Of a stretch of 64,000 nt of DNA, positions 13,945 through 31,296 are shown piece after piece (the stretch's first letter is position 1; every line of letters starts with the position of its first letter). The notes beneath the pieces are model-generated. The model was not told the DNA's origin and searched no databases. It saw only the letters and a list, made by a program, of their open reading frames with translations. The stretch is from assembly GCA_037969115.1 (NCBI GenBank), contig JBBKWQ010000396.1, positions 5,422 through 69,421 of the forward strand, written 5' to 3'. The DNA is from Ilumatobacteraceae bacterium. Lineage in GTDB: Bacteria; Actinomycetota; Acidimicrobiia; Acidimicrobiales; Ilumatobacteraceae. The position numbers and the translations under genes are program-made.

Positions 13945-14846
13945 TCCAGGCGGTACACGATCGATTTCAAGAACTCGGCATCTCCGGTCCGGTGAGCGGG
14001 CGCGACCACGTCGTCGAAACGGATGTGATCGGAACGACGTTTCGCCCTGAGTGGCAAGGTCATGCACGTCGTGAGCAATCGAGCCGCGATCGATTGTGCG
14101 ACTCGCTGATGACCGCCGGTGGTCATGGCGTGCTCGACGAGTGCTGCCGGGGGGGAGCCCTCGATCCGGTAGTCGATGCCCTCCTCCCATCGAAACTGCA
14201 CGATGCGGTGCTCGAAGCGTGAGTCGAGCAGGTCTGCCATCTCACCTTCGATGCCGGCTCTCTGGAGGTAGTCGTGGATGTCGCGATCGAAGTACGGGGC
14301 TGTCTTCGCCGTGAAGACCAGGGTCGAACCATCGAGGCGGACGAACCACAGGTGGCTCGGGAAGTCGAGGATCTTGGCGCTCGCAGCCTCGGGCACCTCG
14401 ATGTATCCGGCCCGAGAGACGCGGACCAGCTCGTCGATCACCGCGCCCGGATCGACGACGTGCTCGAGAACGTGGGAACAGATCGAGTAGTCGAATGCGC
14501 CGGTTGCGAAGGGCATCGACGCAGCATCGGCATCGAAGAGCGGTCGTGAGATCCGTGCCGCTCGGCGGCCGGAGCGCTGCCCGGCATGTTCGGCATCGAT
14601 GAAGCGATCGAGTAGCACGTCGGCTCGCCAATGGGGTTTGTCACCGCTGCCCACGTCGAGTACCAGGGAGTCGGGTCCGGCAGGGATGTCGATCCGACGC
14701 CGATGGAACAGCCGGAGCGACTCGATGACCTGCACCCAGGCAGTATCGCAGCTGTCCCTGTCTCTCGGGTGTGGAGGTGGCAGGATGGCCGCCGTGAGCG
14801 AGCGGACGGTGGTTGCGGCGTTCGATGTCGACGGCACGCTGACCAC
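13929..14846 (-). CDS. Class I SAM-dependent methyltransferase (Methyltransf_11-like)
   Basis: Motif I VLDVGSGDKP and post-I/II region FDYSICSHVLEHVVDP. The start is uncertain: GTG 14846 overlaps the divergent HAD gene, and GTG 14732 (VQVIESL...) is an alternative. Confidence 0.75.
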   Translation of the reverse strand: MVSVPSTSNAATTVRSLTAAILPPPHPRDRDSCDTAWVQVIESLRLFHRRRIDIPAGPDSLVLDVGSGDKPHWRADVLLDRFIDAEHAGQRSGRRAARISRPLFDADAASMPFATGAFDYSICSHVLEHVVDPGAVIDELVRVSRAGYIEVPEAASAKILDFPSHLWFVRLDGSTLVFTAKTAPYFDRDIHDYLQRAGIEGEMADLLDSRFEHRIVQFRWEEGIDYRIEGSPPAALVEHAMTTGGHQRVAQSIAARLLTTCMTLPLRAKRRSDHIRFDDVVAPAHRTGDAEFLKSIVYRLDGTAP

Positions 14847-15432
14847 CCGAGACTGTGTGGTTCCGTTCCTCGTGACGGTCTCATCGCTCCGTTCGCTGTG
14901 TCTCGGGATGTTGCGTCACCCGATAGCGGTTGCTCAAGCGATCGTGCGGCGTGACCGCGACCGGCTCAAGGCACTCGCCACGTCGGCGGCCTTGCGGGGC
15001 CGGCCCTCGGCCGATGTGCAGCGGTTCGCCGACGACTTCGGCCGCAACGCTGCAACCGATTGGCTTCGCACCGATACGGCAGCTCGGCTCGAGTGGCATC
15101 TGGCGCAGGGCCACACCGTGGTACTCGTGTCGGCGTCGTACGCCGTCTACCTCGACGCCTTCGGACGTGAACTCGGCGTTCACGGCGTGATCGCGACACG
15201 GATCGACGTCGATCCCGACGGTCGCTGCACGGGAAACCTCGACGGTCCGAACTGTCGAGGCGCTGAGAAGTGGATCCGGTTGTCGACGTGGCTCCGCGAC
15301 CAGGGGATCGACCGGGAGCAGGCCGAGATCTGGGCGTACGGCGATTCGAACGGTGACCGGGAAATGCTCGGCAAGGCCGATCATCCGGTGTGGGTCGGAC
15401 ATCGGCGCTCGGTGGTCAGTGCGACGCCGTGA
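14785..15432 (+). CDS. HAD-IB family phosphatase
   Basis: Motif I AAFDVDGTLT, motif II VLVSAS and motif IV YGDSNGDREML. ATG 14785 was chosen because the ORF-track N-extension is low-complexity. Confidence 0.8.
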   Translation: MAAVSERTVVAAFDVDGTLTTRDCVVPFLVTVSSLRSLCLGMLRHPIAVAQAIVRRDRDRLKALATSAALRGRPSADVQRFADDFGRNAATDWLRTDTAARLEWHLAQGHTVVLVSASYAVYLDAFGRELGVHGVIATRIDVDPDGRCTGNLDGPNCRGAEKWIRLSTWLRDQGIDREQAEIWAYGDSNGDREMLGKADHPVWVGHRRSVVSATP

Positions 15433-15526: not shown

Positions 15527-16399
15527 ATGATTTCCTCGTTCCTCCGCGCAGCTCGGCCCAAACAGTGGCTCAAGAACATTCTCGTCTTCGCCGCGCCTGG
15601 CGCCGCCGCCGTGCTCGACGACCCGACGGAGTTGTCACGAGCACTGCTTGCTTTCGTCGCGTTCTGTCTCGCAGCGAGTGGCACCTACTATTGGAACGAC
15701 CTCTTCGACATCGACGCCGATCGTGCCCACCCGAAGAAGTCGAAGCGACCCATCGCGGCCGGTGAGATCGGGATCGGCGCTGCTCGCGTCGTGGGCACCG
15801 CGCTCTTGTTCGCCTCGATCGGCGTCATGGCACTGACCGAGCGGTGGCAGGCCGTGCTCGTGATCTCCACGTACATCGCCGTCACGCTGTCGTACACGAT
15901 CGTCCTCAAGCACATTGCGGTCGTCGACCTGATTGCCGTCGCCTCGGGCTTCGTGCTGCGCGCCGCCGGGGGTGCGACGGCGGCGGCGGTCGAGATGTCG
16001 AGTTGGTTCGTGTTGTGCACCACGTTCGGGTCGCTGTTCATCGTCGCCGGCAAACGGTACGCGGAGATCCGAGAACTCGGCGACGGGGCGCGTCACACTC
16101 GCTCCACGATGCACGAGTACAGCACCGACTATCTGCGGGTGGTGCTCACCATCGCCTGTGGCGGCGCAGTCGTGAGTTACTGCGTCTGGGCGTTCGAGCG
16201 CCGTGACATGTCGGGGAGCGAGTGGCCGTTCTACGAGCTGTCGATCGTGCCGATGCTCACCGCCCTCCTTCGATACGCACTCGTGCTCGACTCGGGCGAC
16301 GGCGCTGCCCCTGAGGATGTCTTCGCCAGCGACCGCGTGCTTCAGGTGCTCGGTCTGATCTGGATCGTGGTGTTCGGAATGGCAGTGTACACAGCATGA
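15527..16399 (+). CDS. ubiA: Decaprenyl-phosphate 5-phosphoribosyltransferase-like UbiA-family enzyme (Rv3806c type)
   Basis: RPKQWLKNILVFAAP..., Asp-rich motif NDLFDIDADRAHPKKSKRPIAAGEI (about 15695-15721) and a 290-aa polytopic profile. It is colinear with what I recall of M. tuberculosis Rv3806c. Confidence 0.85.
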   Translation: MISSFLRAARPKQWLKNILVFAAPGAAAVLDDPTELSRALLAFVAFCLAASGTYYWNDLFDIDADRAHPKKSKRPIAAGEIGIGAARVVGTALLFASIGVMALTERWQAVLVISTYIAVTLSYTIVLKHIAVVDLIAVASGFVLRAAGGATAAAVEMSSWFVLCTTFGSLFIVAGKRYAEIRELGDGARHTRSTMHEYSTDYLRVVLTIACGGAVVSYCVWAFERRDMSGSEWPFYELSIVPMLTALLRYALVLDSGDGAAPEDVFASDRVLQVLGLIWIVVFGMAVYTA

Positions 16400-17142
16400 A
16401 CGGACAGCCTGAGTACGCGGCGCTCTCGGAGCGCGTGGCGGCGATCGACGGGTGGATGTCGTCGGACCAAGGCGAACGTCTCTTCGACGCGGCGCGACGG
16501 TGTCGAACCGATGGGCAGATCGTCGAGATCGGAAGTTTCCGCGGGAAGTCGACCGTCGTTCTGGCGTCGGCCGCTCCCGAGCGCGTCACCGTCGTCGCGA
16601 TCGATCCTCATGCCGGCAATGACCGAGGTCCGCAAGAGATCGACGGATTCGAGCAGGCTGCCGCCACCGACTACGAGGCCTTCGTCTCCAATCTCGCCAG
16701 TTTCGCGGTCGCCGATCGAGTCCGTCACTTGCGGTGCTTCTCCGACGTGGCACATGACGAGGTCGCCGGTGACATCGATGTGCTCTACATCGACGGCGCC
16801 CACCGCTACGGACCCGCTCGCCAGGACATCGACGAATGGGGTGCACGGGTGGCCGATGGCGGCACGATGCTCATCCACGATTCGTTCTCGTCGATCGGCG
16901 TCACGATGGCGATCGGACGTTCGCTGATGCTCGGTCGGCGGTTCCGATACGTCGGCCGCTCCCGGTCGCTCGCCGAGTACCGGGCCGAACTCGGTGGCCG
17001 CGGGCGGGTTGCGAACGCCGCCCGACAACTCGCGCAGCTGCCGTGGTTCGTGCGCAACGTCGCGTTGAAGGTGCTGCTGTCGATCGGGCTCGGCAAGGCG
17101 ATGCACCGCCTCGGACGGAACGCCCCCGAATGGCCCTACTGA
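16396..17142 (+). CDS. Class I SAM-dependent methyltransferase (Methyltransf_24 / CmcI-like sugar O-methyltransferase type)
   Basis: IVEIGSFRGKSTVVLA (SAM motif I) and IDVLYIDGAHRYG...GGTMLIHD. ATGA overlap with ubiA at 16396-16399. The end overlaps the dprE1 start. Confidence 0.8.
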   Translation: MNGQPEYAALSERVAAIDGWMSSDQGERLFDAARRCRTDGQIVEIGSFRGKSTVVLASAAPERVTVVAIDPHAGNDRGPQEIDGFEQAAATDYEAFVSNLASFAVADRVRHLRCFSDVAHDEVAGDIDVLYIDGAHRYGPARQDIDEWGARVADGGTMLIHDSFSSIGVTMAIGRSLMLGRRFRYVGRSRSLAEYRAELGGRGRVANAARQLAQLPWFVRNVALKVLLSIGLGKAMHRLGRNAPEWPY

Positions 17143-18521
17143 GTTCCGTCGGCCAGGTAGCGTCCGCATCGATGGAGATCGGCCGATCGCAACAACTCAC
17201 GGGTTGGGGACAGACCTCGCCGACCCGGGCCCAGGTGTATGACCTCCACGTCGCCGATCTCCCCAAGCTGATCAGCCGTGCCGGGCATCGTGGCGTGATC
17301 TCGCGTGGTCTGGGTCGTTCGTACGGCGATCCGGCACAGAATGCCGGTGGTTCGGTGGTACGGCTCGTTCCCGGGCTCGAACCGGCCGAACTCGACGAAT
17401 CCACGGGCATCGTCAGTTGTCACGCCGGTGTGAGCATCGACGATCTGCTCGCGTTCCTCGTGCCGCGTGGTCGGTTCGTCCCGGTCACGCCCGGGACCCG
17501 CTTCGTCACCGTCGGCGGGGCGATCGCGAGCGACGTGCACGGCAAGAACCATCACGTCGACGGCTCGTGGGGACACGCGCTGCTATCGATGCGCCTGCTC
17601 ATGGCCGGCGGCGACATACGCGACGTCACCGCGGAGTCCGATCCGGGGCTGTGGTGGGCCACCATCGGGGGTATGGGTCTCACCGGCATCATCGTCGAGG
17701 CGACATTCGGGTCGATCGCGATCACGTCGAGTCGCTGCGTGGTCGACACCGACCGCGCGACCAACCTCGACGAGATGATGAGTCTGATGGAGTCGGGCGA
17801 TGCGCGCTACCGGTACTCGGTCGCCTGGATCGACCTGCTCGCGACGGGTGGGTCGCTCGGTCGCGGCGTGCTGACCAGCGGCGATCACGCCACGGCTGAT
17901 GTCGCCGGCGCCTCCGGTTCGCTCGAGCGGTATGCCAACCGGCGTCTCGCTGTCGTGCCGCCTGGTATGCCGAACGTACTCGTCCCAGCCACGGTGCGGG
18001 CGTTCAACGAGATGTGGTTCCGGAAGTCGCCGACCCATCGCGAGGGCGAGATCCAGTCGATCGGGCGGTTCTTCCACCCGCTCGACGGCGTTCGCGGTTG
18101 GAACCGGCTCTACGGACGGCCCGGCTTCCTCCAGCTCCAGTTCGTCCTGCCGTTCGGTGAGGAAGAGGCGTTGCGTTCGATCGTCGAGCGCGTCGCCGCG
18201 TCCGGCCATGCCAGCTTCTTGGCCGTCCTGAAACGATTCGGCGCCGGCAACGAAGCCATGCTGAGCTTTCCGAAGCCGGGCTGGACGCTCACGCTCGACC
18301 TGCCGGCCGGCCGCGACGTGCTGGGCCGTCTGCTCCACGAACTCGACGACACGATCCTGACCGCCGGCGGGCGTCACTACTTGGCCAAGGACGCGCACAT
18401 GTCGTCCGATGCGATGCGACAGGGATATCCACGACTCGAGGAGTGGCAGGAGCAGCGGCACAAGGCAGATCCGGACGGCGTCTGGGTGAGCGACCTGGCC
18501 CGGCGGCTCGACCTCGTCTGA
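17130..18521 (+). CDS. dprE1: Decaprenylphosphoryl-beta-D-ribose 2'-oxidase (FAD)
   Basis: QLTGWGQTSP, RGLGRSYGDPAQN, VTVGGAIASDVHGKNHH, GFLQLQFVLP and SFPKPGWTLTLDLP are colinear with M. tuberculosis DprE1 as I recall it. The start is ATG 17130 (463 aa) or ATG 17172 (449 aa). Confidence 0.9.
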   Translation: MALLSSVGQVASASMEIGRSQQLTGWGQTSPTRAQVYDLHVADLPKLISRAGHRGVISRGLGRSYGDPAQNAGGSVVRLVPGLEPAELDESTGIVSCHAGVSIDDLLAFLVPRGRFVPVTPGTRFVTVGGAIASDVHGKNHHVDGSWGHALLSMRLLMAGGDIRDVTAESDPGLWWATIGGMGLTGIIVEATFGSIAITSSRCVVDTDRATNLDEMMSLMESGDARYRYSVAWIDLLATGGSLGRGVLTSGDHATADVAGASGSLERYANRRLAVVPPGMPNVLVPATVRAFNEMWFRKSPTHREGEIQSIGRFFHPLDGVRGWNRLYGRPGFLQLQFVLPFGEEEALRSIVERVAASGHASFLAVLKRFGAGNEAMLSFPKPGWTLTLDLPAGRDVLGRLLHELDDTILTAGGRHYLAKDAHMSSDAMRQGYPRLEEWQEQRHKADPDGVWVSDLARRLDLV

Positions 18522-18572: not shown

Positions 18573-19343
18573 GTGTGCACAGTGCGCAATGCGGTGAATG
18601 AGAATCAGACGATCGTGGTGCTCGGGGGAACCTCCGACATCGGTGTCGCCATTGCGCGACGACTGGTGAACCCGACCACGCGCCACGTCGTGTTGGCTGC
18701 TCGCAACACCAACGCAGCGACGGCGCGGCTCGCCGACATCGGAGTCGACGGTGACGTGGCGAGCGTCGAACCGTTCGACGCGGATGACTCGAAGAGCCAC
18801 TCGGCGTTCATCGAGCGGTTGGCAGAACGGTATGGCGATCTCGATGTCGTGGTGATCGCGTTCGGCGTGCTGGGCAGTCAGGACGAGTTCGACGCCGACC
18901 CGGCGGCTGCAGCTGCGGCCGTAACCACGAACTACACCGGCGCCGTGAGTGCTGGACTTGCCGTCGCGGGCCAACTCCGCCGGCAGGGACACGGTTCGCT
19001 CGTGGTGCTGTCGAGTGTCGCAGGCGAGCGCGTCCGCGCTGCCAATTTCGTCTACGGCTCGTCGAAAGCCGGACTCGATGGCTTCGCCCAGGGCCTGGGA
19101 GACTCGCTGGCCGGGTCTGGCGCGAACGTCCTGGTCGTGAGGCCCGGGTTCGTGAAGTCCGCGATGACAGAAGGATTGCCGGCTGCCCCGTTCTCGACGA
19201 CGCCCGAAGCGGTCGCCGACGCGGTGGCAGGTGCACTCGGTTCACGACGGCGCACCATATGGGTGCCGGGCATCCTCCGGTTCGTGTTCTCGGCGCTGCG
19301 CCATGTACCCGGTCCGATCTGGCGGCGGTTGCCGCTCGGATGA
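18573..19343 (+). CDS. dprE2: Decaprenylphospho-2'-keto-ribose reductase (SDR)
   Basis: VVLGGTSDIGVAIA, LSSVAGERVRAANFVYGSSKAGLDGF, VLVVRPGFV and the C-terminal ALRHVPGPIWRRLP match the DprE2 (Rv3791) pattern end to end. 256 aa. Confidence 0.9.
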   Translation: MCTVRNAVNENQTIVVLGGTSDIGVAIARRLVNPTTRHVVLAARNTNAATARLADIGVDGDVASVEPFDADDSKSHSAFIERLAERYGDLDVVVIAFGVLGSQDEFDADPAAAAAAVTTNYTGAVSAGLAVAGQLRRQGHGSLVVLSSVAGERVRAANFVYGSSKAGLDGFAQGLGDSLAGSGANVLVVRPGFVKSAMTEGLPAAPFSTTPEAVADAVAGALGSRRRTIWVPGILRFVFSALRHVPGPIWRRLPLG

Positions 19344-19359: not shown

Positions 19360-22300
19360 TCAGGCAGTGCATCGCCGGTACAGGACGATCAGTCCGTTTT
19401 CGAAGCTGTCGACCTCGCAGAACTGATCTCGAATGACCTGATTCGGTTCGTCGGGTCCGAATTCCATCGACGAGTTGGGCTCGATCCATCCGTTCCAGAA
19501 ACCGGTCAGGATCACCCAATCTGCCGTTTCGATCTCGCGCGCCAGCATCGAACCCGGTGCGTTCGCGAGGCCGGGGTCCATCTCGATGTAATAGGTAGCC
19601 GGGTCGAGTTCGGGGAACAGGTAATAGAAGAAGACGTCGCTGTACCAGGTGCGGCGCAAGTCTTGCGGACCGACGAACAGTCGCTCGCCGGGTTGCGCCT
19701 CGGCATCGAGCGCCTCGATGACTCCGGCACTGGCACGCCAGGGCCGGACATCTCCCAGGTAGAACTTGCGTCCATCGCGCTCGACGGGGAAGGCAGCCGG
19801 TATGTCGCCGACCGAGATACGCGCGTAGTTCAGGTAGTAGCGGTACGTGAACAGCGGTGCGACGATCAGCATCAGCGCCGCCAGGACGGCGGCGGCCGTG
19901 ACGGTGCGACGGCGCGGGTGTGACCTGGGTTCGTGCAACCGCATCACCTCCCAGATCGCCAGCACCAGGAGCGGCCACGAGATGCACGTGACCCACGCCA
20001 GATGCGTCGAGTCGGGTCGTTGGAGCGCCTGCGGGACGATGCCGACTCCGATGATCGATCCCACGAGCAACACGTTCGCCGTCGCAGATCCGTCGGTCTT
20101 GTGGCGGAGCCAGATTGCGAACGCGACGAGCCCGGCAGCGATGACCAACATGAGCCAGAACCAGATGAACAACGACTGACTCGCCGGAAGCGAGGGAATC
20201 GGCCAGTAGGGCGGCACGGTTTCGGCAATTGCCTGGAGCGAACCGTCGAGTGAGTTCCAACTCGGCGGTGACGGCAGCTCGCGCCCTGCTCGTAGGTGGA
20301 ACACGGGGTCGCTGAACATGCCCTCGAACGAGGCCGACGGCCCGGCGATCGCCAGGTGGATCCACATCGGAATTGCGCCGATGACACCACCGACGAGGAG
20401 TGGTTTCACGGCGGCCCGGTGTTGCCAGGCGAGCCAGCCGGCGACGAGCGCCACCGCCAGGATCAGATCTGGCCGAAACGTGAGTGCGAGGCCGCCGAGC
20501 AGTCCTGCGCCGATCCAGTGATGTGTGGCGCTTTGCGCAACGGTGCGGTTGGTGGCGCGCAGAGCGACGATCGCGCTCCACAGCACCAGGGCGAGGCCGC
20601 CGTTCCACGCCATCGCCGTCAGGCCGATCGGCGTGAGGATGAGCAACGTCGAGAGCACGCCGACAGCGGTGGCCGCAGTGCGGCCCCAGGCTCGCGCCAG
20701 CGTGTAGAGCGCGAAGATGATGGCGAGATGCTGCAAGGTCCCGAATGCCCGCTCGGCGCCCAGGGTGAATCCGACCACCTTGAACCAGCCCATGAGGGCA
20801 TACAGAGATCCGGGGCCGTAGAGGTGGAGAAAGTCGACGTTGGGAACGTCGCCTTTCCACATCCGCTCGGGGAAGTAGAGCATGAAACCCTCCTCCATGG
20901 TGCCGCCGGTGGTGGAGAACAGGCCACGCAGCGGCAGAGCAACGGTGAGCAGGATCAGCCCGATCGACAACCAGCTGCGTCGCGCTCCCTGCGCCACGCG
21001 GCGCAGGCCACCCGAACCGCCGAGGACGTAGGCGACGTCGTCGTCGACCGGTCCAGACGCCTCGCTGCCGGTCTCCGTGCCTGGCTCTACGTCGGCGGGC
21101 AGGAGCCACTTCCACGCGCGTGACAACACGGGCACTGCGGCAACTGCGGCGAGAATGCACAGCACCGGTTCCATCGGCGCACGGAACCGTACGGTTCCGT
21201 AGGCGTAAGCAGCAGTGATGGTGACCGACAACGCCTGAGCGCCGAGCGGCAACAAACGGACGCGGCGACGCCTCAGCATGATCGCCCCGGCGACCGACGA
21301 TGCTGCCAACGCGAAGTACATGACGAGTCCGACCTTGGCCGACCGGATCTCGCGTCCCTCGATGGAGGACAGCTCGACGTTCTGCATCGGTCGGAAGAGC
21401 TCCCACTGCCTGGCAACGCGGATGGCGACCACCCGTGGTACGTCGTCGAGGTGGTCGCCCGCGTAATCGAGACCGATGGTTCTCCAGTACCGCGCCTTCT
21501 CCGAGCGGTCTCCCGGAGGTTCACCGAACTCGGCGCGGTGCTGCTCCTGACAGTCGAACGCCCAATAGCCCACCAGTCGCCCGGAATAGGTGAGATCGCA
21601 GTTGGCGTAGACGAGGAGTTCGTTCCCGTTCTCCGACAACGGAACGAACTCCTCGAACGTGGTCAGGTTTCGTGCCGTCCACGGCGCGAGCACCATCAGA
21701 CATGTCGCGCCGGCGAGTACGAGGTGTCGCCAACGGTCGCCGAGGTCGAGGTCGTAGTTCCGCAACATCCACGGCATGACCAGGAGTGGTGCGAGCAAGA
21801 GTCCCTCACCGCGCGTGAGCGCAGCGAGACCGATCAGCGCACCGATCGCCGCCGAGCACCACCACGTCGGGCGATCACGCCACCGATAGGCCAACAGCAC
21901 GCACGACGTGGTGAGCAACGCGAAAAGGCCCTCGGGGAAGAGCAGTGGATCGATCATCCACAGGTTGGGGTAGAGGGCCGCGAACACACCGGCGACGAGT
22001 GCAACGGCGCGCCCGCCGAGGCGGCGCGCGACCGACATCGTGACCGCCACAGTTGCCGTGCCGATGAGGATCGACACGAACTTGTGGTCGACATAACTGG
22101 TTCCGCCCAGCCTTGACGACAACGACAGGATCACCGGGTACAGCGGGCCGTGGAGAGCGCTGGGCAGGGGAGTGGCGGAGTCGAGCCAGTTCAGCGGCTC
22201 GGGGAAGCCACGACCCTCGGCGAGTGCGTTCGCGGTGACGTGGTAGAAGAGCGGGTCGCCGTCGTCGGTCTTGGTGGCGAGGATCCGCAGCCACGCCGTG

Positions 22301-23292
22301 ACACGCATCAACAGACCACCGCCGACGACACCGGCGAAGACGGCGGGATACCACCAGGCCGGCCAGCGACCCGTTCGCCAGCGAATGACCGGAAGTGCGC
22401 CTGCTGCGGTGATCACGACGCCGATCGCCACGGCCAGTGCGGCAGACCAGAGGAACAATGGAATCGCTGCAGCAGCGACGATCGATCCGTTCGGTGTGTC
22501 GACGTAGCTCTCGATGTGTTGCCGGGCAAGACCGCCGACCACGACCGATCCGGCGAGGGCCGACCCGGGCGCAGCGAACCCGACCCTCGAGAACCATCGC
22601 GACGGCGAACCGGCGGCGAGATGGATGCTCAGGACGATCAAACCGGCGACGGCGAGGTACGCGACCCGGCGGACGAGCAGATCGACGACACCGGTGACGG
22701 GTTCGCCGCGCGGAAGCCCACCGAGCCATGCCGTTGCCAACATGATCGCCGCCGCCACGGGCAGAATCCGTTTTCCGCTGCGAAGTGCTGCCGGTGGACC
22801 GACCCGAGCGATGGAGACGACGATGAGCGCCAGACCGATGGTGTCGATCGAACCTGCAACGAAGCCGAGCGCTTCGCGGGCACCGGCGGAAACTCGTGAC
22901 TCCATGGCCACGTGCACCGGCACACCCAGTGCGGCTATCGCCGCGCCGGCTGTCATCCAGAAGCGTGAGCCTCGTAGGCCCAGTTCGAGGCGGTCCGCAG
23001 TGACCAGGGCTGCGATCGCGACGATGATCACGACGACACCGACATCGAAACGAGCAATCAGCCGACCGAGCACAGATTCGGTCGAGCCGGTGAAGTGGCC
23101 GACCTCGGCTGCGATGTTCGCGAGACCTGCCAATGAAACCAGAGCAAACGTCCGCGCAGCCAAGGCAGGACTGCGATCGTGTCTCGGGGCCGTCCCTTCG
23201 GGAGCACGGGTCGTTTCGAGCGAGGTCACAACGGCTGCGAGTGTAGGTGGCCCACCCCTGTCACAATGTGTATCGATCTGCGAGCAGATCAC
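19360..23292 (-). CDS. 1310-aa polytopic membrane protein: unknown N-terminal TM module + PMT_2/ArnT-like GT-C module + second GT-C-like module with C-terminal globular domain
   Basis: Uninterrupted 3.9-kb ORF. aa ~311-730 are colinear with the divergent neighbour 23313-24614 (YPNLWM, GLAALTRGEGLLLAPLL, APWTARNL, ANC...Y...GYWAFDC, RFRAPMEPV). aa ~771-1310 form another multi-TM block plus a ~150-aa soluble tail. The true start is uncertain (GTG 23292 or a downstream GTG/TTG). Confidence 0.8.
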   Translation of the reverse strand: MICSQIDTHCDRGGPPTLAAVVTSLETTRAPEGTAPRHDRSPALAARTFALVSLAGLANIAAEVGHFTGSTESVLGRLIARFDVGVVVIIVAIAALVTADRLELGLRGSRFWMTAGAAIAALGVPVHVAMESRVSAGAREALGFVAGSIDTIGLALIVVSIARVGPPAALRSGKRILPVAAAIMLATAWLGGLPRGEPVTGVVDLLVRRVAYLAVAGLIVLSIHLAAGSPSRWFSRVGFAAPGSALAGSVVVGGLARQHIESYVDTPNGSIVAAAAIPLFLWSAALAVAIGVVITAAGALPVIRWRTGRWPAWWYPAVFAGVVGGGLLMRVTAWLRILATKTDDGDPLFYHVTANALAEGRGFPEPLNWLDSATPLPSALHGPLYPVILSLSSRLGGTSYVDHKFVSILIGTATVAVTMSVARRLGGRAVALVAGVFAALYPNLWMIDPLLFPEGLFALLTTSCVLLAYRWRDRPTWWCSAAIGALIGLAALTRGEGLLLAPLLVMPWMLRNYDLDLGDRWRHLVLAGATCLMVLAPWTARNLTTFEEFVPLSENGNELLVYANCDLTYSGRLVGYWAFDCQEQHRAEFGEPPGDRSEKARYWRTIGLDYAGDHLDDVPRVVAIRVARQWELFRPMQNVELSSIEGREIRSAKVGLVMYFALAASSVAGAIMLRRRRVRLLPLGAQALSVTITAAYAYGTVRFRAPMEPVLCILAAVAAVPVLSRAWKWLLPADVEPGTETGSEASGPVDDDVAYVLGGSGGLRRVAQGARRSWLSIGLILLTVALPLRGLFSTTGGTMEEGFMLYFPERMWKGDVPNVDFLHLYGPGSLYALMGWFKVVGFTLGAERAFGTLQHLAIIFALYTLARAWGRTAATAVGVLSTLLILTPIGLTAMAWNGGLALVLWSAIVALRATNRTVAQSATHHWIGAGLLGGLALTFRPDLILAVALVAGWLAWQHRAAVKPLLVGGVIGAIPMWIHLAIAGPSASFEGMFSDPVFHLRAGRELPSPPSWNSLDGSLQAIAETVPPYWPIPSLPASQSLFIWFWLMLVIAAGLVAFAIWLRHKTDGSATANVLLVGSIIGVGIVPQALQRPDSTHLAWVTCISWPLLVLAIWEVMRLHEPRSHPRRRTVTAAAVLAALMLIVAPLFTYRYYLNYARISVGDIPAAFPVERDGRKFYLGDVRPWRASAGVIEALDAEAQPGERLFVGPQDLRRTWYSDVFFYYLFPELDPATYYIEMDPGLANAPGSMLAREIETADWVILTGFWNGWIEPNSSMEFGPDEPNQVIRDQFCEVDSFENGLIVLYRRCTA

Positions 23293-23312: not shown

Positions 23313-24614
23313 ATGACCCTTCTCAACACCCCGCACGTCTCCAACCACGTTTCGGCCACGCACCGCCGGTGGTTCCTCGCCGCAGTGACGCTCGCAGCGG
23401 CGGTTCGATTCGTCATGCTCGCGTCGAAGTGGCGAGACGGCCTGCTGCTGAACGACTCCCTCTGGTACAGCGGGCAGGCCTCGCAACTCGCTCGTGGTCG
23501 CGGATTCGCCGGTCCGTTCGTGAGCGGACCGTCGGCAGAGCATGGTCCACTCACCCCACTGCTGCTCGCTCCTGTGAGCGGGCTTGACAATCCCGTCCCG
23601 TGGCAACGGCTGGTCATGACGTTGATCGGCATCATCACCGTGGCACTGATCGGGCTGCTCGCCGCGCGTGTGGCCGGCTGGACGGCAGCGGTGTTTGCGA
23701 CGTTGTTGGCGGCGGTGTACCCCAATCTGTGGATGAACGACAGTTTGGTCATGTCGGAATCGGTGGCGGCCCTCATGGTGACCGGCGCGCTCCTGGTCGC
23801 GGTGTCGATCCCGGGCGGTCGGCATCAATCCGTACGCGGATTGTGGTGCGGTGCGCTCGTCGGGCTCGCGGCGTTGACCCGTAGTGAACTCTTGCTCCTG
23901 GCACCGCTCATCGCAGTGGTGATCTGGGTTCCCGATGAACGACGCACCGATGGGTCCGATCCGTCACGCCAGGTTCTTCGCACCCCGCTGCTGGTCGTGG
24001 TCGCCGCGCTCGTGGTGGTGTCGCCTTGGGTGGTGCGAAACCTGCTCAGCTTCGAGCGCCCCGTCGTGATGACCACCAACGATGGCGCGACCCTGTTGGG
24101 AGCGAACTGCGCCGACTCGTACGCCGGGGCCGACATCGGGGGATGGTCTCTGTTCTGCGTACTCGACGCCGGGGGCCGACCCGACGAAGAACCCTCGGTC
24201 CGGTCCGAGCGGTATCGCTCGCTCGCAGTCGATCACGCCACCGACCATCCCGGCCGAGTTCCACTCGTCGTTGCCGCCCGAATCGGTCGGGGTCTCGACC
24301 TGGTCGGGGTCGAGAACCTGGTCGTGGCCGACGTCGGCGAAGAGCGATACCGATGGGCCTCGTGGTCGGGTGTCGTCGCGTGGTGGCTGCTCGTGATCCC
24401 CATGATCGTCGGCGCACGAATGCTGACCCGTCGGCCGCGATTGATCCTGCTCACGCCTGTCGTTTCCGTGTTCATCACGACCGTTTGCTTCTACGGCGGC
24501 CATCGCATTCGCTCGCCGCTCGAGCCCGTGGTGGTCGTTCTGTCGGGCGTGGCAATGGCGGCCTGGTTCCAGCGACTCACTCGACCTCGACCGGGCAGCG
24601 GCGCGACAGCATGA
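23313..24614 (+). CDS. GT-C membrane glycosyltransferase, PMT_2/ArnT (GT39/GT83-like) family
   Basis: 433 aa and polytopic. LNDSLWYSGQASQLARGRGF, AAVYPNLWMNDS, GLAALTRSELLLLAPL, SPWVVRNLLSF and HRIRSPLEPV fit the pattern of bacterial PMT_2 proteins. ATG 23313 is preferred to GTG 23247, which overlaps the divergent gene. Confidence 0.8.
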   Translation: MTLLNTPHVSNHVSATHRRWFLAAVTLAAAVRFVMLASKWRDGLLLNDSLWYSGQASQLARGRGFAGPFVSGPSAEHGPLTPLLLAPVSGLDNPVPWQRLVMTLIGIITVALIGLLAARVAGWTAAVFATLLAAVYPNLWMNDSLVMSESVAALMVTGALLVAVSIPGGRHQSVRGLWCGALVGLAALTRSELLLLAPLIAVVIWVPDERRTDGSDPSRQVLRTPLLVVVAALVVVSPWVVRNLLSFERPVVMTTNDGATLLGANCADSYAGADIGGWSLFCVLDAGGRPDEEPSVRSERYRSLAVDHATDHPGRVPLVVAARIGRGLDLVGVENLVVADVGEERYRWASWSGVVAWWLLVIPMIVGARMLTRRPRLILLTPVVSVFITTVCFYGGHRIRSPLEPVVVVLSGVAMAAWFQRLTRPRPGSGATA

Positions 24615-26671
24615 CCGATCAGCCTCGCTACCAACCGGCGCTCGACGGCATCCGCGGCGTCGCTGTGGTCCTCGTCGTCTTGTTCCACGGCGGAGTGACG
24701 TGGCTCGACGGCGGCTACCTCGGCGTCTCGGTTTTCTTCACGCTGTCGGGTTTCCTGATCACCCGATTGCTCCTCACGGAGTTCGACCGCACCGGCGGCA
24801 TCGACATTCCGGCGTTCCTGGCTCGGCGGGCACGTCGTCTGCTCCCGGCAAGCGCCGTCTGTCTCGTTGGTGTGGCGGTGTGCTCGCGCCTCGGGCTGCT
24901 CGACGGTGTGGCAAACCTGCAGCGCGATCTCCTCGGCTCGGCTTTCCAGGTACAGAACTGGGTGATGCTCGCCTCGGGCGACTCGTATGCCGATTTGCTG
25001 GTCGACACGGCCGGCCGGCCGTCGCCGCTCGACCACTACTGGTCATTGGCGATCGAGGAACAGTTCTACTGGTTCTGGCCGGCGGCGGTTTCGATCTTGG
25101 CAGTCGTTCCACATGCGCGGATTCGCCGGTTCGGTGTGCTCGCGTTCGCGGCAGCGCTGGTCGCCCCATTGACGGCTGTGCTGTGGGGTGCAGAAGCCGC
25201 CTATCTGGCGACTCCGGCGCGTCTCGCCGAGATTCTGGTGGGAGCATCGTTGGCGACGATGTTCCATGACGCCGCCGCACTCGCCCGGCGCCCGCCGGCG
25301 TGGCTCGGTATCGCCGGATGGATCGGCGTCGCTTCCGTGATGTTCGGCGTGCTGGTACTTCCCGTCGCCGGCGGATTCGCCTATTCCGGCGGTCTGCCTT
25401 TGGTGGCAGTGGCAAGCGCGTTCTGGATCGCCTCGGTGCAGGCTGCGGGCTCCCTCACCCGCGTGATGGCGCATCCGGTCTTGGCAACCGTCGGCAGGGC
25501 GAGTTATGGCGTGTACCTGTATCACTGGCCGATCTTCGTGATGCTCGACGAGTCGAGAATCGGCCTGTCCGGATTCGGACTGCTTGGTCTTCGACTGGCC
25601 GTGACAGCGGTCGTCGCTGCCGCGTCGTTCGTCTGGATCGAGCAGCCGATCCGAACGGCCACATGGCGCCCACGTCCGACCTTGGCGATGGCGGGTGGTG
25701 CCACCGTCGTGTTGCTCGTGGTTGCGGTCGCCGTGCCGGCATCGTTGGACGAGTACTGGAATCGCGGAACCGCGGAGGCCGCGAGCGAGTTCCGGAGTGC
25801 TGCACCGGATGAACCGCTCACGTCAGCGACGTCTCCTCCGACGAGTGCACCACACCCTCCTGACGTCACCAGCGGCGTCGACGGGAGCGACGGCATTCCG
25901 CCGCGCCCACTTTCCACGGCGCCATCGACCGTCGAGTCCGACGCCGTCGCACAGACCGCAACCATCGATCTCGACCTCGACTTCGTCCCGGCCCGACCCG
26001 TGCGAATCGTGATGGTCGGTGACTCGACGGCCGAGGCGACCGGCAACGGTCTGGTCGATTGGGCGGTACAACACCCCGAGTTCGCCGAGGTGGCGCTGGC
26101 GGTGTCGCCCGGTTGTGGCTTCCTCCGAGGTGGCGTGGTCTCCACCGACGACGGTGTGCCTTTCGGCGAGAGCTGCGACGGCGTGCTGGACGACGTGCTT
26201 CCCGACCTGCTCGAAGCCGAACCGGACGTGGTCGTACTGCTCGCCACGTCGCGCGACATGCTCGACCGGGAGTGGTCGGATGACGAGGGTCCGCTCGGTC
26301 CACACGATCCGCTGTTCCGGGCCCGCCTCGAAGCTGACTACGCGACGATGACTCGGTTGATCCGACAGGCCGGAGCCGTCGTGGTGTGGACTCGTGCACC
26401 GGACGTCGACCCGTTCTGGCTCGGGTTGGACGACCGTTTCAGCAATGCCGAACGCCGCGCGGTCGTCGAAGGAGTCATGGAACGTCTTGCCGCCGACCCG
26501 GGTGACGGCGTCGAACTGCTCGATCTCCGATCGTGGGCCGCTGACGACGGCGTCGACGCAGACCACGAAGCACGGCCCGATGGCATGCATTGGACACCGG
26601 TCGCAGCGCTCGACATCGCTGATCGGTATCTTGCACCAGCACTCATCAACATTGCACTGGACCACACTTGA
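24611..26671 (+). CDS. Acyltransferase-3 (OafA/YrhL) membrane domain fused to a C-terminal SGNH hydrolase domain
   Basis: ALDGIRGVAVVLVVLFHGG...GYLGVSVFFTLSGFLIT (AT3 signature), a Ser/Thr/Pro linker, then IVMVGDSTAE (GDS block I) and PDGMHW (DxxH block V). ATGA overlap with the upstream gene at 24611-24614. Confidence 0.85.
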   Translation: MTDQPRYQPALDGIRGVAVVLVVLFHGGVTWLDGGYLGVSVFFTLSGFLITRLLLTEFDRTGGIDIPAFLARRARRLLPASAVCLVGVAVCSRLGLLDGVANLQRDLLGSAFQVQNWVMLASGDSYADLLVDTAGRPSPLDHYWSLAIEEQFYWFWPAAVSILAVVPHARIRRFGVLAFAAALVAPLTAVLWGAEAAYLATPARLAEILVGASLATMFHDAAALARRPPAWLGIAGWIGVASVMFGVLVLPVAGGFAYSGGLPLVAVASAFWIASVQAAGSLTRVMAHPVLATVGRASYGVYLYHWPIFVMLDESRIGLSGFGLLGLRLAVTAVVAAASFVWIEQPIRTATWRPRPTLAMAGGATVVLLVVAVAVPASLDEYWNRGTAEAASEFRSAAPDEPLTSATSPPTSAPHPPDVTSGVDGSDGIPPRPLSTAPSTVESDAVAQTATIDLDLDFVPARPVRIVMVGDSTAEATGNGLVDWAVQHPEFAEVALAVSPGCGFLRGGVVSTDDGVPFGESCDGVLDDVLPDLLEAEPDVVVLLATSRDMLDREWSDDEGPLGPHDPLFRARLEADYATMTRLIRQAGAVVVWTRAPDVDPFWLGLDDRFSNAERRAVVEGVMERLAADPGDGVELLDLRSWAADDGVDADHEARPDGMHWTPVAALDIADRYLAPALINIALDHT

Positions 26672-27822: not shown

Positions 27823-28397
27823 TGGATTCGGGAACCCGACCGATCGCGACCCACGCTGTCGCAGTTGCGGTGCTCGCGCTCACGGTCGGACTCGTGGTCG
27901 GATGGTGGGTCTGGCCCTCACTGAGTGGTGCGGACGACCAGGTCGACGTGATGGTGATCGACGACGGTTTCCTCAAGACGAGTCGTCGATCCGTCGAGTT
28001 GCGGGTCCGCGAGGAGGGTCAACGAATCGAATGGCTCGACCTGGCCTCGACCGACTGTACGCCCGACGAGTTCGCCGCGGCCGTCTCCCGGGTCGCCCCG
28101 GAACGCGTCGTGATCAGCCTCGGCGACCCGACGTGCGAGGCGACCGCGGTGGCCGATCTGGCCCACTCGACGCCGATCGTGCTGGTCCGACCGGGTGAAC
28201 CCGTCGACAGACCTGAGGCGACCGAGGTCATCGACCCGACGCATTTGATCGGTCACCCGGAGCCGTCGCTGCGCCTCGGATGCCTCTGGTGGGAGGTCTG
28301 CCCGCCCGAACGGTCGGTCGAGGTGCGAGACACACGGGGAAATCTCACGATCGAGGGCGGAGAACGTGTTGCCCGATTGATCGCCGCGAACGTCTGA
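27819..28397 (+). CDS. Hypothetical single-pass membrane protein, unknown function
   Basis: 192 aa. One N-terminal TM (AVAVAVLALTVGLVVGWWVW) and a ~150-aa predicted exported domain with 4 Cys. ATGA overlap with the GT4 gene. I recognise no family motif. Confidence 0.6.
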   Translation: MMDSGTRPIATHAVAVAVLALTVGLVVGWWVWPSLSGADDQVDVMVIDDGFLKTSRRSVELRVREEGQRIEWLDLASTDCTPDEFAAAVSRVAPERVVISLGDPTCEATAVADLAHSTPIVLVRPGEPVDRPEATEVIDPTHLIGHPEPSLRLGCLWWEVCPPERSVEVRDTRGNLTIEGGERVARLIAANV

Positions 28398-28417
28398 CGG
28401 CTGTACGATCCTGCGCC

Positions 28418-29146
28418 GTGCGTACCGTCATCGTGATTCCGACCTACAACGAGCGTGAGAACGTCGTGAAGCTCGTTGAGGCCGTGCGCTGCGCGGTTGC
28501 CGATGCCGATGTCCTGGTGGTCGATGACAGCAGCCCGGATGGCACTGGTGAACTCGTGACCGAGATGCGGACGAACGACGACCGGGTCAGGCTGCTCAAT
28601 CGCCCGAAGAAGGAGGGACTGGGCAGCGCGTACCGTGAGGGTTTCGCGAGTGTGCTCGACGCCGGCTACGACCGTGTGGTGTCGATGGATGTCGACTTCT
28701 CGCACGATCCCACGGTGATCCCCGAGATGCTGCGGCTGCTCGATGCCGGAGCCGATGCCGTGATCGGGTCGCGGTACGTGCCCGGAGGATCCACCGTGAA
28801 CTGGCCGGTGCATCGTCGGATCCTGTCACGATGGGGCAACCGGTACACCTCGTTCGTGTTGGGTCTCCAGGTCCGTGACTGCACCTCTGGATTTCGGGCC
28901 TACAGCGCCGGGGCACTGCGTGCGATCTCGCCGTCGACCACGAGCGCGGAAGGATATGCGTTTCTCACCGAACTGGTCCGGCGTCTCGCACGGGGCGGCT
29001 TCCGTATCCTCGAAACACCGATCGTGTTCACCGATCGGGAACACGGATCGTCGAAGATGTCGGGACGGATCGTCGTCGAATCGATGTTCCTGGTGACCCG
29101 ATGGGGTCTCCGAGACGCGATCCGGCGCCGCAAACCGGCGGTCTGA
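28418..29146 (+). CDS. ppm1: Polyprenol-monophosphate mannose synthase-like GT2 (Dpm1/Ppm1 type)
   Basis: VIVIPTYNERENV, VVDDSSPDGTG, KKEGLGSAYREGF, MDVDFSHDP, GSRYVPGGSTVNWP, DCTSGFRAY and EHGSSKM form the near-canonical Ppm1/Dpm1 pattern. GTG start at 28418. Confidence 0.85.
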   Translation: MRTVIVIPTYNERENVVKLVEAVRCAVADADVLVVDDSSPDGTGELVTEMRTNDDRVRLLNRPKKEGLGSAYREGFASVLDAGYDRVVSMDVDFSHDPTVIPEMLRLLDAGADAVIGSRYVPGGSTVNWPVHRRILSRWGNRYTSFVLGLQVRDCTSGFRAYSAGALRAISPSTTSAEGYAFLTELVRRLARGGFRILETPIVFTDREHGSSKMSGRIVVESMFLVTRWGLRDAIRRRKPAV

Positions 29147-29157
29147 CCACCGGGTAC

Positions 29158-31281
29158 TCAGTCCACGGGAGCGCAAGCGCCGACGGGCATGTCGTATCGC
29201 TCGTCGTTGGCCCAGTCGCCACTCGCCCAGGCGATGGGCGACGCCGGTTCAACGCCGTCGAGTCGCTGGTCGAGCTGGTCGGTGAGCCAGTGGGCAAAGC
29301 TCGCAGCGCCGGCGGGGCACACGTGAACTCGATCCCGTTTGCGCTCGGGGGTGCCGTCACCGTCGGCGTCGAGCGTGGGTTCGGTACCCCACAGGGACGA
29401 GGCGTCGACGAACCAGGTCATTGTCGAGTCGACATCGGCGATCTCTCGCGCGATCGCAGCGAGAGTTTCGGTACCGGAATCATCGAGCGCCGTCGGTGGC
29501 GAGCTGACATAGAACACGCGGATCCCGTTCTCACGAATCAGGAAGTGGAAGGCGTCCAGTGCCTCACGTTGTTCCGCACTCGAGTCGTCGGCATCCCAGA
29601 TCGAGAGCTGCAAGATGACGGTGTCGGGCCGGATTCGATCGATCGCGCTGCTCAGTCGACCGACGACGGAGTCGATGTCGTCGCCACCGACGAGCCGTAC
29701 GCCCGGAAACGCTTCGCTCACGGCGTCGACTCCGGCACTGTCGAGCGCTGCCAGCAGACCGGGAGCGAGGTCGTATGCAATCGAATCGCCGAGCCAGAGC
29801 ACCCTGCCGGCGTCGGGCTGCGGCACCACGATCGTCGTGCTCGGAAGAGCAGCGACCGTGGTCGTGGTCGTGGTGAGCGACGTGCTGGCCGCGGAGTTCG
29901 ATGCGTTGTTCGGCGCCATGGTGGAGGCGGTGGCCGAGACCGGCTGGTTGGCGAGCCGAGCCGGGCTTGCCGACCCGGCTGCGGTGTGCACAGGCGCGAG
30001 CGTCGTCGCAGGCGCAGCGATCGATGCGACAGCGATCGTCGTGCTCGGTTGATCCAACGGCGACGTCGTCGTCGTGCCGATCGATGCGGGGTCGAATGCG
30101 GCGATCTCGGTCGTGGGCGCCGGAATGACGAGCAGAACGGCGGCCACCGCCGCAACTGCCTGGACGAGCCTCGGAATCCGACGTGGCCCGAAGGGTGCTG
30201 GTACGGCGAAGCGAACCGGGTTCTCGACGAACCGGAGCGACAGCACCGCACACGCCACCGAAACAGCGATCCGCACGAGCGTGAGGGTCCACCCATCGAC
30301 GCCCATCCGATCGGGCGAAAGGACCACGTACACCGGCCAGTGCCACAGGTACAGGCCGTAGGAGTGCCGGCCGATCCACCGGAGTGACGGTGCGGCCAGC
30401 AGGCCCGCTGCCCGACCGTGAGAACCCGCCGCCAGCAGCGCCACGATCACCGCGCACAGGGCGCTGTGCGCCACCAGTCCACCCCGGTAGAGGACCTGCG
30501 ACGACGCACCGTCGATCGTGAACCACGCGAGGGCGAGAGCTGCCAGCGCGAGCAGGAGGAGTGCATCGACGCGCTCCGGCCGGGCGTCGACCATGCGGCG
30601 TCCCAGACGCACTGCCGGGGCCGTCGCCAGTGCGGCACCGAGCAGGATCGACGATGCACGCGTATCGGTACCCATGTAGACGCGTGTCGGATCGCCGCCG
30701 CCGTAGAGGAGGGCCATCACGGCGACCGACGCAATGGCGCCCGCGACCGCCACGCCCGACAACACGGCGTGCGGTCTGCGTGCGAATCGCCACACGATGA
30801 CCACAACGAGTGGCCACAGCACGTAGAACTGTTCCTCGATGGCCAGGCTCCACAAGTGGTCGAACATGCCGGGCTGCTGGAACGACGCCCAATAGCCGCC
30901 GGACTCGCTGATCTCGAACCAGTTCGAGCCATAGAGCAGTGCCCATGGTCCGCTACGGCGCACCCCGTCGATCTCGGCGGGCGATCCCCAGATCGCGACC
31001 CACACCGACGCGACGGCGATCATCACCAGAACAGCAGGAAGCAGGCGTCTCGCCCTCCGCGTCCAAAACGTCGTGAGCGAGATGCCTCCGCCGTCGGTGT
31101 CGCGCAGGAGCAACGACGTGATGAGGAAGCCCGAGAGCACGAAGAACAGGTCGACACCGAGGAATCCGCCCTGGAGGTGGCCCGCGTGGAACACGAGCAC
31201 GCCGACGACCGCCAGCGCTCGAAGCCCGTCGAGTGGAGCGATGTGCCCCCAGGGGACCGTAGGAGATGTCGAGGCAGCCAT
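29158..31281 (-). CDS. Acyltransferase-3 membrane domain fused to a C-terminal SGNH hydrolase domain (second copy)
   Basis: LDGLRALAVVGVLVFHAGHLQGGFLGVDLFFVLSGFLITSLLL (AT3), a ~100-aa Thr/Ser/Ala/Pro linker, then VLWLGDSIAYD (GDS) and DRVHV (DxxH). 707 aa. Confidence 0.85.
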   Translation of the reverse strand: MAASTSPTVPWGHIAPLDGLRALAVVGVLVFHAGHLQGGFLGVDLFFVLSGFLITSLLLRDTDGGGISLTTFWTRRARRLLPAVLVMIAVASVWVAIWGSPAEIDGVRRSGPWALLYGSNWFEISESGGYWASFQQPGMFDHLWSLAIEEQFYVLWPLVVVIVWRFARRPHAVLSGVAVAGAIASVAVMALLYGGGDPTRVYMGTDTRASSILLGAALATAPAVRLGRRMVDARPERVDALLLLALAALALAWFTIDGASSQVLYRGGLVAHSALCAVIVALLAAGSHGRAAGLLAAPSLRWIGRHSYGLYLWHWPVYVVLSPDRMGVDGWTLTLVRIAVSVACAVLSLRFVENPVRFAVPAPFGPRRIPRLVQAVAAVAAVLLVIPAPTTEIAAFDPASIGTTTTSPLDQPSTTIAVASIAAPATTLAPVHTAAGSASPARLANQPVSATASTMAPNNASNSAASTSLTTTTTTVAALPSTTIVVPQPDAGRVLWLGDSIAYDLAPGLLAALDSAGVDAVSEAFPGVRLVGGDDIDSVVGRLSSAIDRIRPDTVILQLSIWDADDSSAEQREALDAFHFLIRENGIRVFYVSSPPTALDDSGTETLAAIAREIADVDSTMTWFVDASSLWGTEPTLDADGDGTPERKRDRVHVCPAGAASFAHWLTDQLDQRLDGVEPASPIAWASGDWANDERYDMPVGACAPVD

Positions 31282-31296
31282 TGGGGTGAAGGTCGC

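Follow-up and report, generated by a model that had tools for sequence, protein, structure and literature searches.

The 64,000-nt window analysed here, that is, the whole stretch of DNA taken from a contig of an Ilumatobacteraceae bacterium, carries on its minus strand an open reading frame (ORF) at positions 19360-23292, which encodes a genuine and widely conserved Ilumatobacteraceae membrane protein of about 1,300 residues. We consider it fairly probable that this is one protein in which a dead acyltransferase-3 (AT3) domain (module 1) is joined to two probably catalytic GT-C modules (modules 2 and 3), with polyprenyl-phospho-D-arabinofuranose as the donor for at least module 3. The protein probably acts on a cell-wall glycan, as a glycosyltransferase with two sites that depends on polyprenyl-phospho-arabinose. 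As a rule, GT-C glycosyltransferases have a single module, and they sometimes dimerise. The parts of the protein are familiar; what is new is the architecture, the connection of the module 3 family with arabinose-carrier synthesis, and the decayed AT3 domain.

The ORF is free of internal stop codons, and its G+C content at third codon positions (GC3) is 0.79 against 0.52 at second positions (GC2), a signature typical of coding sequence; the window DNA as a whole has 65% GC. The NCBI protein P0001 (1289 aa) is 100% identical to the window protein and begins at V22. The start codon is either at 23292 or the GTG at 23229, of which the latter is favoured from P0001 and is likely the right one, and the first 21 codons are uncertain. 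In the protein database, at least 120 clusters (90% identity) of the same length class were found, most of them 1250-1440 aa long and 47-67% identical, and these came mainly from Ilumatobacteraceae and Acidimicrobiia metagenome bins. A locus scan limited to one genome per species gave 568 related loci; among the 80 that were fetched, modules 2 and 3 share one reading frame in about 65. Since the architecture recurs across these clusters and loci, and in assemblies that many studies obtained independently and on different sequencing platforms, the long ORF is a conserved gene, neither a chance frame nor an assembly artefact. The modules do lie in different frames in a few long-read metagenome-bin loci (L051, L071 and L044), but in view of this recurrence, the stop-free window ORF and the conserved linker, it is hardly credible that assembly or annotation has merged separate genes. 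Scans for promoters and terminators inside the ORF detected nothing above chance. Very long upstream frames in two loci (L054 and L029) were considered as additional fused modules and rejected; as they hold no extra Pfam domain, they are probably stop-free GC-rich sequence.

Module 2 was assigned to the PMT_2 type of GT-C from a Pfam match (PF13231; aa 381-538, E 1.8e-10), which scores 41.7 bits against a gathering score of 26.1. BLASTP comparison with the protein encoded divergently next to the target gene showed 38% identity over 397 aa (E 3e-53), and the colinearity of the two sequences extends from the first loop through the last helix. The neighbourhood counts refer to the 34 related loci that are 18 kb or longer, and in only two of these (L001 and L005; 57-59% identity) does the divergent gene have a true orthologue. 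Since these are the two closest loci, the divergent duplicate is a local feature that stands outside the conserved system. A comparable arrangement was observed in an Acidimicrobiales bin (L075:10001-15356), where a module 2-3 gene (1465-aa ORF) is followed by a module 2-like stretch at 14124-14945 with 29% identity, which may be another local GT-C duplication. In GT-C enzymes such as ArnT, PglB, PMT and Emb, the catalytic acidic residues lie just after the first transmembrane helix (TM1). In the first-loop motif of module 2, D343, G345, D346, P347, Y350 and H351 are invariant among 51 homologues. The two invariant cysteines in its large acidic loop, C565 and C581, may form an extracytoplasmic disulfide.

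The AlphaFold2 model of aa 741-1310, built with 111 sequences, reached a mean predicted local distance difference test score (pLDDT) of 90.7 and a predicted template modelling score (pTM) of 0.92. The top match of this module 3 model in a Foldseek search of the PDB was ArnT (5F15; E 7.2e-8, template modelling score 0.54/0.56), and the 12 best matches are all GT-C proteins, namely ArnT, STT3 in oligosaccharyltransferase (OST) complexes, AftA (8IF8), PglB, ALG9, GPI mannosyltransferase I and PimE, with AftB, EmbB and EmbC lower in the list. Judged from the model, module 3 is a second GT-C glycosyltransferase. Within its first-loop motif MEEGFMLYFPER, M799, E800, E801, F803, M804, F807, P808 and E809 are invariant; E800 and E801 are so in all 111 sequences, and in the model they open the helix that follows TM1. 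The C-terminal soluble domain of module 3 also holds an invariant cysteine pair (C1292/C1308), and the positions of this pair and of the pair in the module 2 loop would both fit an extracytoplasmic location.

Since an invariant acidic pair stands at the start of the first extracytoplasmic loop in modules 2 and 3 alike, both modules are probably catalytic. It is unlikely that only one of them is active and the other is a pseudo-enzyme acting as a scaffold or as an acceptor- or carrier-lipid-binding partner. Non-catalytic partners are common in GT-C complexes, and module 1 shows that domains in this protein can decay; modules 2 and 3, however, are each 50-70% identical across the family, against 22-34% for the decayed module 1 with its variable length, and in both of them acidic and aromatic residues of the loop that directly follows TM1 are invariant.

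A preliminary description, made from the letters of the window alone, had proposed a single uninterrupted 3.9-kb ORF encoding one polypeptide, a module 2 colinear with the divergent PMT_2-like protein, and a GT-C-like module 3 with an acidic loop and a C-terminal soluble domain. The results above bear out all of these, and its module boundaries were nearly right, with TM1 of module 2 near aa 317 and module 3 opening at aa 754. Its further suggestion, that the protein arose by gene duplication plus fusion, held in part. The duplication applies to module 2 and its divergent neighbour but not to modules 2 and 3, which hhalign aligned colinearly over 169 GT-C core columns with an E value of 2.4e-4 and a probability of 43%; these two modules are distant relatives and not recent duplicates of each other. 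The fusion, on the other hand, is upheld, since an independent module 3 gene exists in other Acidimicrobiia and the window protein is therefore a fusion product. Such stand-alone genes encode proteins of about 590 aa with 58-60% identity, and they occur in Desertimonas flava and several Acidimicrobiia bins (loci L066, L070, L073, L074 and L076-L080). The stand-alone proteins begin with the same cytoplasmic motif, AFVLGGSGGLRRR, which in the fused protein follows a linker.

Module 3 belongs to a large family. An exhaustive search over 1.84 billion representatives gave 1738 clusters at E <= 1e-3 and 503 at E <= 1e-30; fusion is frequent among the nearer of these, and the remoter ones are stand-alone proteins of 500-590 aa; the sole names attached to these clusters are 'glycosyltransferase family 39 protein' and 'hypothetical'. 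The stand-alone module 3 of Desertimonas matches PMT_2 weakly (E 2.8e-4), and module 3 of the homologue P0032 matches GT87 with E 1.2e-5, barely above threshold (25.7 bits against a cut-off of 25). The window protein matched none of the Pfam and NCBIfam models for GT53, GT85, GT87, GT89 and the AftD family.

Module 1 is poorly kept across the homologues, with 22-34% identity and lengths from 166 to 508 aa; even in close loci tblastn failed to detect it, and some orthologues seem to lack it. Its sole well-conserved part is the last two helices, which bear the ARQxxE motif. The preliminary description had seen in it an orphan with no recognisable motif and, speculatively, a flippase-like donor handler; both views have to be abandoned in favour of a degenerate AT3 domain, which was recognised through intermediates. 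The orthologue P0104 (1430 aa) gives at the module 1 position a Pfam Acyl_transf_3 match (PF01757; aa 32-398, E 7.5e-26, 91 bits against a cut-off of 31) that spans profile positions 2-324 of 326, and the same stretch was aligned by hhalign with the module 1 family profile over 346 columns (probability 99.8%, E 6.7e-30). P0104 is one gene on a 220-kb contig, and its gene order matches that of the window locus, with AT3-SGNH and GT2 upstream and GT4, DprE2, DprE1, UbiA and HAD downstream. The N-terminal domain of P0104 is 35-57% identical to many stand-alone Acidimicrobiia AT3 acyltransferases; a protein-collection search with its aa 1-420 returned 283 AT3 proteins, P0104 itself, although a cluster representative in the search with the window protein, evidently being missed by the word-based prefilter. 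The joint alignment, in which P0104 and its nearest relatives link the stand-alone AT3 proteins with the window protein, is colinear throughout, and the module 1 regions of L044 and L055 match stand-alone AT3 proteins directly (E 6e-14 and 3e-11, respectively). The assignment is made through these intermediates (P0104, L044 and L055) because direct comparison was not significant: against the window's two AT3 domains, hhalign gave E 0.14 with the module 1 profile and E 0.32 with the clade nearest to P0104, P0104 being left out. By way of them, module 1 can be regarded as homologous to the ten-helix AT3 domain. The module 1 alignment was built from excised segments, since MAFFT alignment of the fragment against full-length homologues scattered module 1 and was discarded. 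The AT3-like stretches of the two loci (L044:9371-9907 and L055:1196-1555) either precede the module 2-3 genes or form their beginning; the one in L044 is outside the module 2-3 ORF, being a separate gene or the result of a long-read frameshift.

An active AT3 domain is defined by R-X10-H in helix 1 and RXXR in helix 3, both of which are essential (PMC9833829). P0104 keeps both, as LDGLRALAALAVLFSH (R-X10-H) and RRVWRIYP (RXXR), together with the AT3-typical blocks WSLAVE and SYGIFLWHE. The motifs are intact only in P0104 and degenerate in 50 of the 51 sampled homologues; partial retention is confined to the clade nearest to P0104, and the decay tracks the phylogeny. In module 1 of the window protein, Asn occupies the His position of R-X10-H, the Arg is absent, and a deletion of about 100 residues, equal to two helices, has removed the block with RXXR and WSLxxE. 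AlphaFold modelled the module (pLDDT 83, pTM 0.80) as some eight helices bundled together, for which a Foldseek search of the PDB gave no significant match (best E 0.29, probability <= 0.41). The Pfam scan of module 1 likewise gave no match, including none to a flippase or transporter family, and hhalign found no relationship with module 2 or module 3. On this evidence, module 1 is best described as a vestigial AT3, descended from an acyl-CoA-dependent O-acyltransferase, that has lost its activity motifs, and since the activity residues are gone, it is most likely merely a structural or anchoring appendage. As the helix count is even (ten in AT3, eight in module 1), both ends of module 1 would be cytoplasmic, which fits a module 2 TM1 that crosses outwards in the predicted topology.

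We regard it as very improbable that module 1 still works, whether as a donor-handling or flippase-like domain or as an acyltransferase. It is true that AT3 domains form a transmembrane pore (PMC9833829), that the last two helices with ARQxxE are kept, and that no GtrA/Rv3789-like gene was found among the ORFs scanned in the window. The loss of both motifs in nearly all homologues, the deletion in the window protein, the widely varying length and the absence of a transporter fold among the Foldseek matches all speak against such a role, and the module 2-3 ORFs of L064 and L044 leave little room for module 1, with the AT3-like sequence of L044 just upstream.

The positions of the features of the target protein and of the adjoining genes are collected in the following table.

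Table. Location of the target ORF, its modules and motifs, and the flanking genes in the window
Feature	Positions	Strand	Remarks
Whole ORF	19360..23292	-	1310 codons + stop; likely start GTG 23229 (V22)
Module 1	22363..23229	-	aa ~22-310; predicted vestigial AT3 membrane domain, ~8 helices
ARQHIE motif	22510..22527	-	aa 256-261; A-R-Q-x-x-E nearly invariant
Module 2	21058..22362	-	aa ~311-745; predicted PMT_2-type GT-C; TM1 starts near aa 317
Module 2 first-loop motif TDDGDPLFYH	22240..22269	-	aa 342-351; candidate catalytic acidic pair
Module 2 Cys pair C565/C581	21550..21606	-	invariant; large acidic loop
Module 3	19363..21045	-	aa ~750-1310; predicted GT-C membrane domain + C-terminal soluble domain
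AYVLGGSGGLRR	20998..21033	-	aa 754-765; basic cytoplasmic motif opening module 3
Module 3 first-loop motif MEEGFMLYFPER	20863..20898	-	aa 799-810, acidic; candidate catalytic acidic pair
Module 3 C-terminal alpha/beta soluble domain	19363..19791	-	aa ~1168-1310, ~145 aa; model residues 428-570
Divergent 433-aa GT-C (PMT_2), module 2 paralogue	23313..24614	+	Pfam PMT_2 above gathering score
DprE2 (decaprenylphospho-erythro-pentofuranosid-2-ulose 2-reductase)	18573..19343	+	NCBIfam NF053786, 310 bits vs cut-off 250
DprE1 (decaprenylphosphoryl-beta-D-ribose oxidase)	17190..18521	+	NCBIfam NF053785, 538.6 bits vs cut-off 500
Decaprenyl-phosphate phosphoribosyltransferase (UbiA family)	15527..16399	+	NCBIfam NF008978, 344.6 bits vs cut-off 207
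HAD-IB phosphatase	14599..15432	+	candidate for donor-pathway dephosphorylation step

The DprE2 gene is placed tail-to-tail with the target gene and is followed farther off by the DprE1 and decaprenyl-phosphate phosphoribosyltransferase genes, among which a class-24 methyltransferase gene and the HAD-IB phosphatase gene are interspersed; the latter may perform the dephosphorylation step of the donor pathway. DprE2, DprE1 and the phosphoribosyltransferase are enzymes that produce the arabinose donor familiar from the wall of the tuberculosis bacterium. On the opposite side of the target gene there are the GT-C paralogue, two AT3-SGNH genes, one GT4 and two GT2 genes, a further GT-C gene (36257-37603) and an AftD-family GT-C gene (PF11847 match, E 2.4e-84). 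AftD homologues in Ilumatobacter have been noted earlier (bioRxiv 10.1101/2019.12.22.885152). In the 34 long loci, DprE2 is adjacent in 32 and DprE1 is present in 31, while the phosphoribosyltransferase, the HAD phosphatase and the AftD-like gene are present in 23, 22 and 19, respectively. DprE2 comes directly after the end of module 3, also where module 3 stands alone.

GT-C enzymes use polyprenyl-phosphate-carried sugars at the outer face of the membrane. According to the mechanism we propose, the donor for at least module 3 would be polyprenyl-phospho-D-arabinofuranose, provided by the adjacent phosphoribosyltransferase, DprE1 and DprE2, and the protein would add two kinds of residue or two types of linkage to an arabinose-containing wall glycan. 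Consecutive lipid-linked sugar transfers by modules 2 and 3 are plausible, and the fusion of the two would be a covalent version of a heterodimeric GT-C such as EmbA-EmbB or Pmt1-Pmt2. The rest of the glycan would be made by the AftD-like enzyme and the other GT-C, GT4 and GT2 enzymes of the cluster, and it would be O-acylated by the two neighbouring AT3-SGNH enzymes, which may supply the acylation that the decayed module 1 no longer can. It is the genomic context that points to an Aft/Emb-like way of working.

A different assignment, in which the protein is a PMT/GT39-like protein O-glycosyltransferase or a user of polyprenyl-phosphate-hexose and not an arabinofuranosyltransferase, seems rather improbable to us. 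It would agree with the PMT_2 match of module 2, with the automatic 'glycosyltransferase family 39' names, and with the likeness of two GT2 genes of the cluster to AglJ, PpgS and ArnC-type synthases. PMT_2 is a broad family, however, the PMT family model PF02366 did not match the window protein, and the solved PMT structures gave no sequence match; moreover, the linkage to DprE2 and DprE1 is seen in 31-32 of the 34 long loci and holds with stand-alone module 3 as well.

Several points nevertheless weigh against the arabinofuranose-dependent two-site enzyme that we favour. The full-length family sequence profile had zero matches in the PDB even at E 10, and since no solved structure is found by sequence profile, the catalytic residues are assigned by position. 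The database names of the module 2/3 family members are all automatic ('GT39 family', 'hypothetical'). The hydropathy-based helix count before the large loop of module 2 is ambiguous and too crude for topology. Module 1 may retain a residual role, e.g. lipid binding. Finally, since the GT2 pair resembles polyprenyl-phosphate-sugar synthases, module 2 could use a non-arabinose donor; the GT2 enzymes might supply it with a hexose or an amino sugar on a lipid carrier, in the way in which PpgS, together with the GT-C Rv3779, decorates arabinan in mycobacteria.

A broader interpretation can be offered tentatively, as a possibility that we hold to be clearly less probable than the two-site enzyme itself. 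Ilumatobacteraceae and related Acidimicrobiia might make a D-arabinofuranose wall polymer with an unrecognised set of GT-C enzymes. At its core would stand an ancestral AT3-GT-C-GT-C 'assembly line', a single polypeptide that once carried out O-acylation in conjunction with two glycosyl transfers. The GT-C sites would then form an obligate intramolecular pair, and the dead AT3 would serve as a structural or carrier-lipid-binding element.

Compared with the Emb/Aft enzymes, module 3 has the same GT-C fold as AftA, AftB, EmbB and EmbC according to Foldseek, and the target gene adjoins equivalog-level genes of the donor pathway (Rv3806c, DprE1 and DprE2 in the known system), with an AftD-family gene in the same cluster. 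The window protein itself, however, has no detectable sequence similarity to Emb/Aft proteins, and only the separate AftD neighbour matches a named arabinosyltransferase family; the hosts of Emb/Aft are mycobacterial or corynebacterial, whereas the host here belongs to the Acidimicrobiia and is not a mycolate actinobacterium. In EmbA-EmbB two GT-C subunits work as a heterodimer; the fusion of modules 2 and 3 is similar, but forms one covalent chain. Pmt1-Pmt2 (PDB 6P25) also unites distinct GT-C subunits as one unit, and module 2 matches the related PMT_2 family; its subunits are nevertheless separate polypeptides that use a dolichyl-phosphate-mannose donor and a protein acceptor, and the MIR domains are absent from the window protein.

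Among solved structures, module 3 is matched best by ArnT (PDB 5F15 and 5EZM), the undecaprenyl-phosphate-L-Ara4N:lipid A transferase (E 7e-8, template modelling score 0.54-0.56). Both consist of a GT-C membrane domain followed by a C-terminal soluble domain, and ArnT takes its sugar from a polyprenyl-phosphate donor, as is predicted for module 3. ArnT is only 11-12% identical to module 3, however, and is a single-module enzyme of some 550 aa that differs in donor and acceptor. As for the AT3 enzymes (OafA, OafB, OatA; PF01757), the full-length homology with module 1 is drawn via P0104 and the stand-alone Acidimicrobiia AT3 proteins. AT3 enzymes are stand-alone or SGNH-fused, whereas module 1 is fused at its C-terminus to a GT-C and has lost the motifs and about two helices.

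A review of AT3 fusions lists those with SGNH and with alanine racemase only (PMC9558356), so the AT3-GT-C type is missing from it. In the literature searched, the coverage of which was limited, we found no paper on tandem or fused GT-C proteins, AT3-GT-C fusions or Acidimicrobiia arabinofuranosyltransferases. The conserved covalent fusion of two different GT-C modules offers a natural system for studying the cooperation of two sites on one growing glycan, and the decayed AT3 is a clear case of a membrane enzyme domain becoming a pseudo-domain. Module 3 marks an uncharacterised GT-C family of about 1,700 representative clusters, mostly stand-alone, which is tightly tied to arabinose-carrier synthesis outside the mycolate actinobacteria. 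The link between module 3 and the donor genes suggests that Acidimicrobiia have arabinan-like polymers in their walls and possibly that they are sensitive to inhibitors of the DprE1 type; Ilumatobacteraceae and related Acidimicrobiia are abundant freshwater, soil and marine actinobacteria.

Some further observations were made on the neighbouring genes. Two small adjacent ORFs at 54855-55175 (+) and 55176-55565 (+) encode 106 and 129 aa with a GC3 of 0.83-0.89 and without Pfam match. The cluster contains two complete AT3-SGNH O-acyltransferases, at 24530-26671 (+) and 29158-31296 (-). The two GT2 proteins, encoded at 28280-29146 (+) and 31297-32031 (-), resemble AglJ, PpgS, ArnC and dolichyl-phosphate-hexose transferase, all below cut-off, and one of the GT-C enzymes could receive a second lipid-linked donor from them. 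The mechanically called DprE1 ORF 16836-18521 (+) overlaps the class-24 methyltransferase gene (16396-17142, +) by about 300 nt; since the DprE1 family match begins at aa 119 of this ORF, the true start lies close to 17190. The Desertimonas locus (L078:13925-15754) has a 609-aa ORF whose C-terminal part is the methyltransferase domain. The GT-C gene at 36257-37603 (-) encodes 448 aa, matches PMT_2 (E 7.7e-6) and GT87 (E 3.2e-5), and immediately precedes the AftD-like gene. At 32016-38012 (-), the mechanically called ORF of 1998 aa is over-extended and overlaps this GT-C gene in another frame; as its AftD Pfam match starts only at aa 608, the AftD protein is probably about 1400 aa long.

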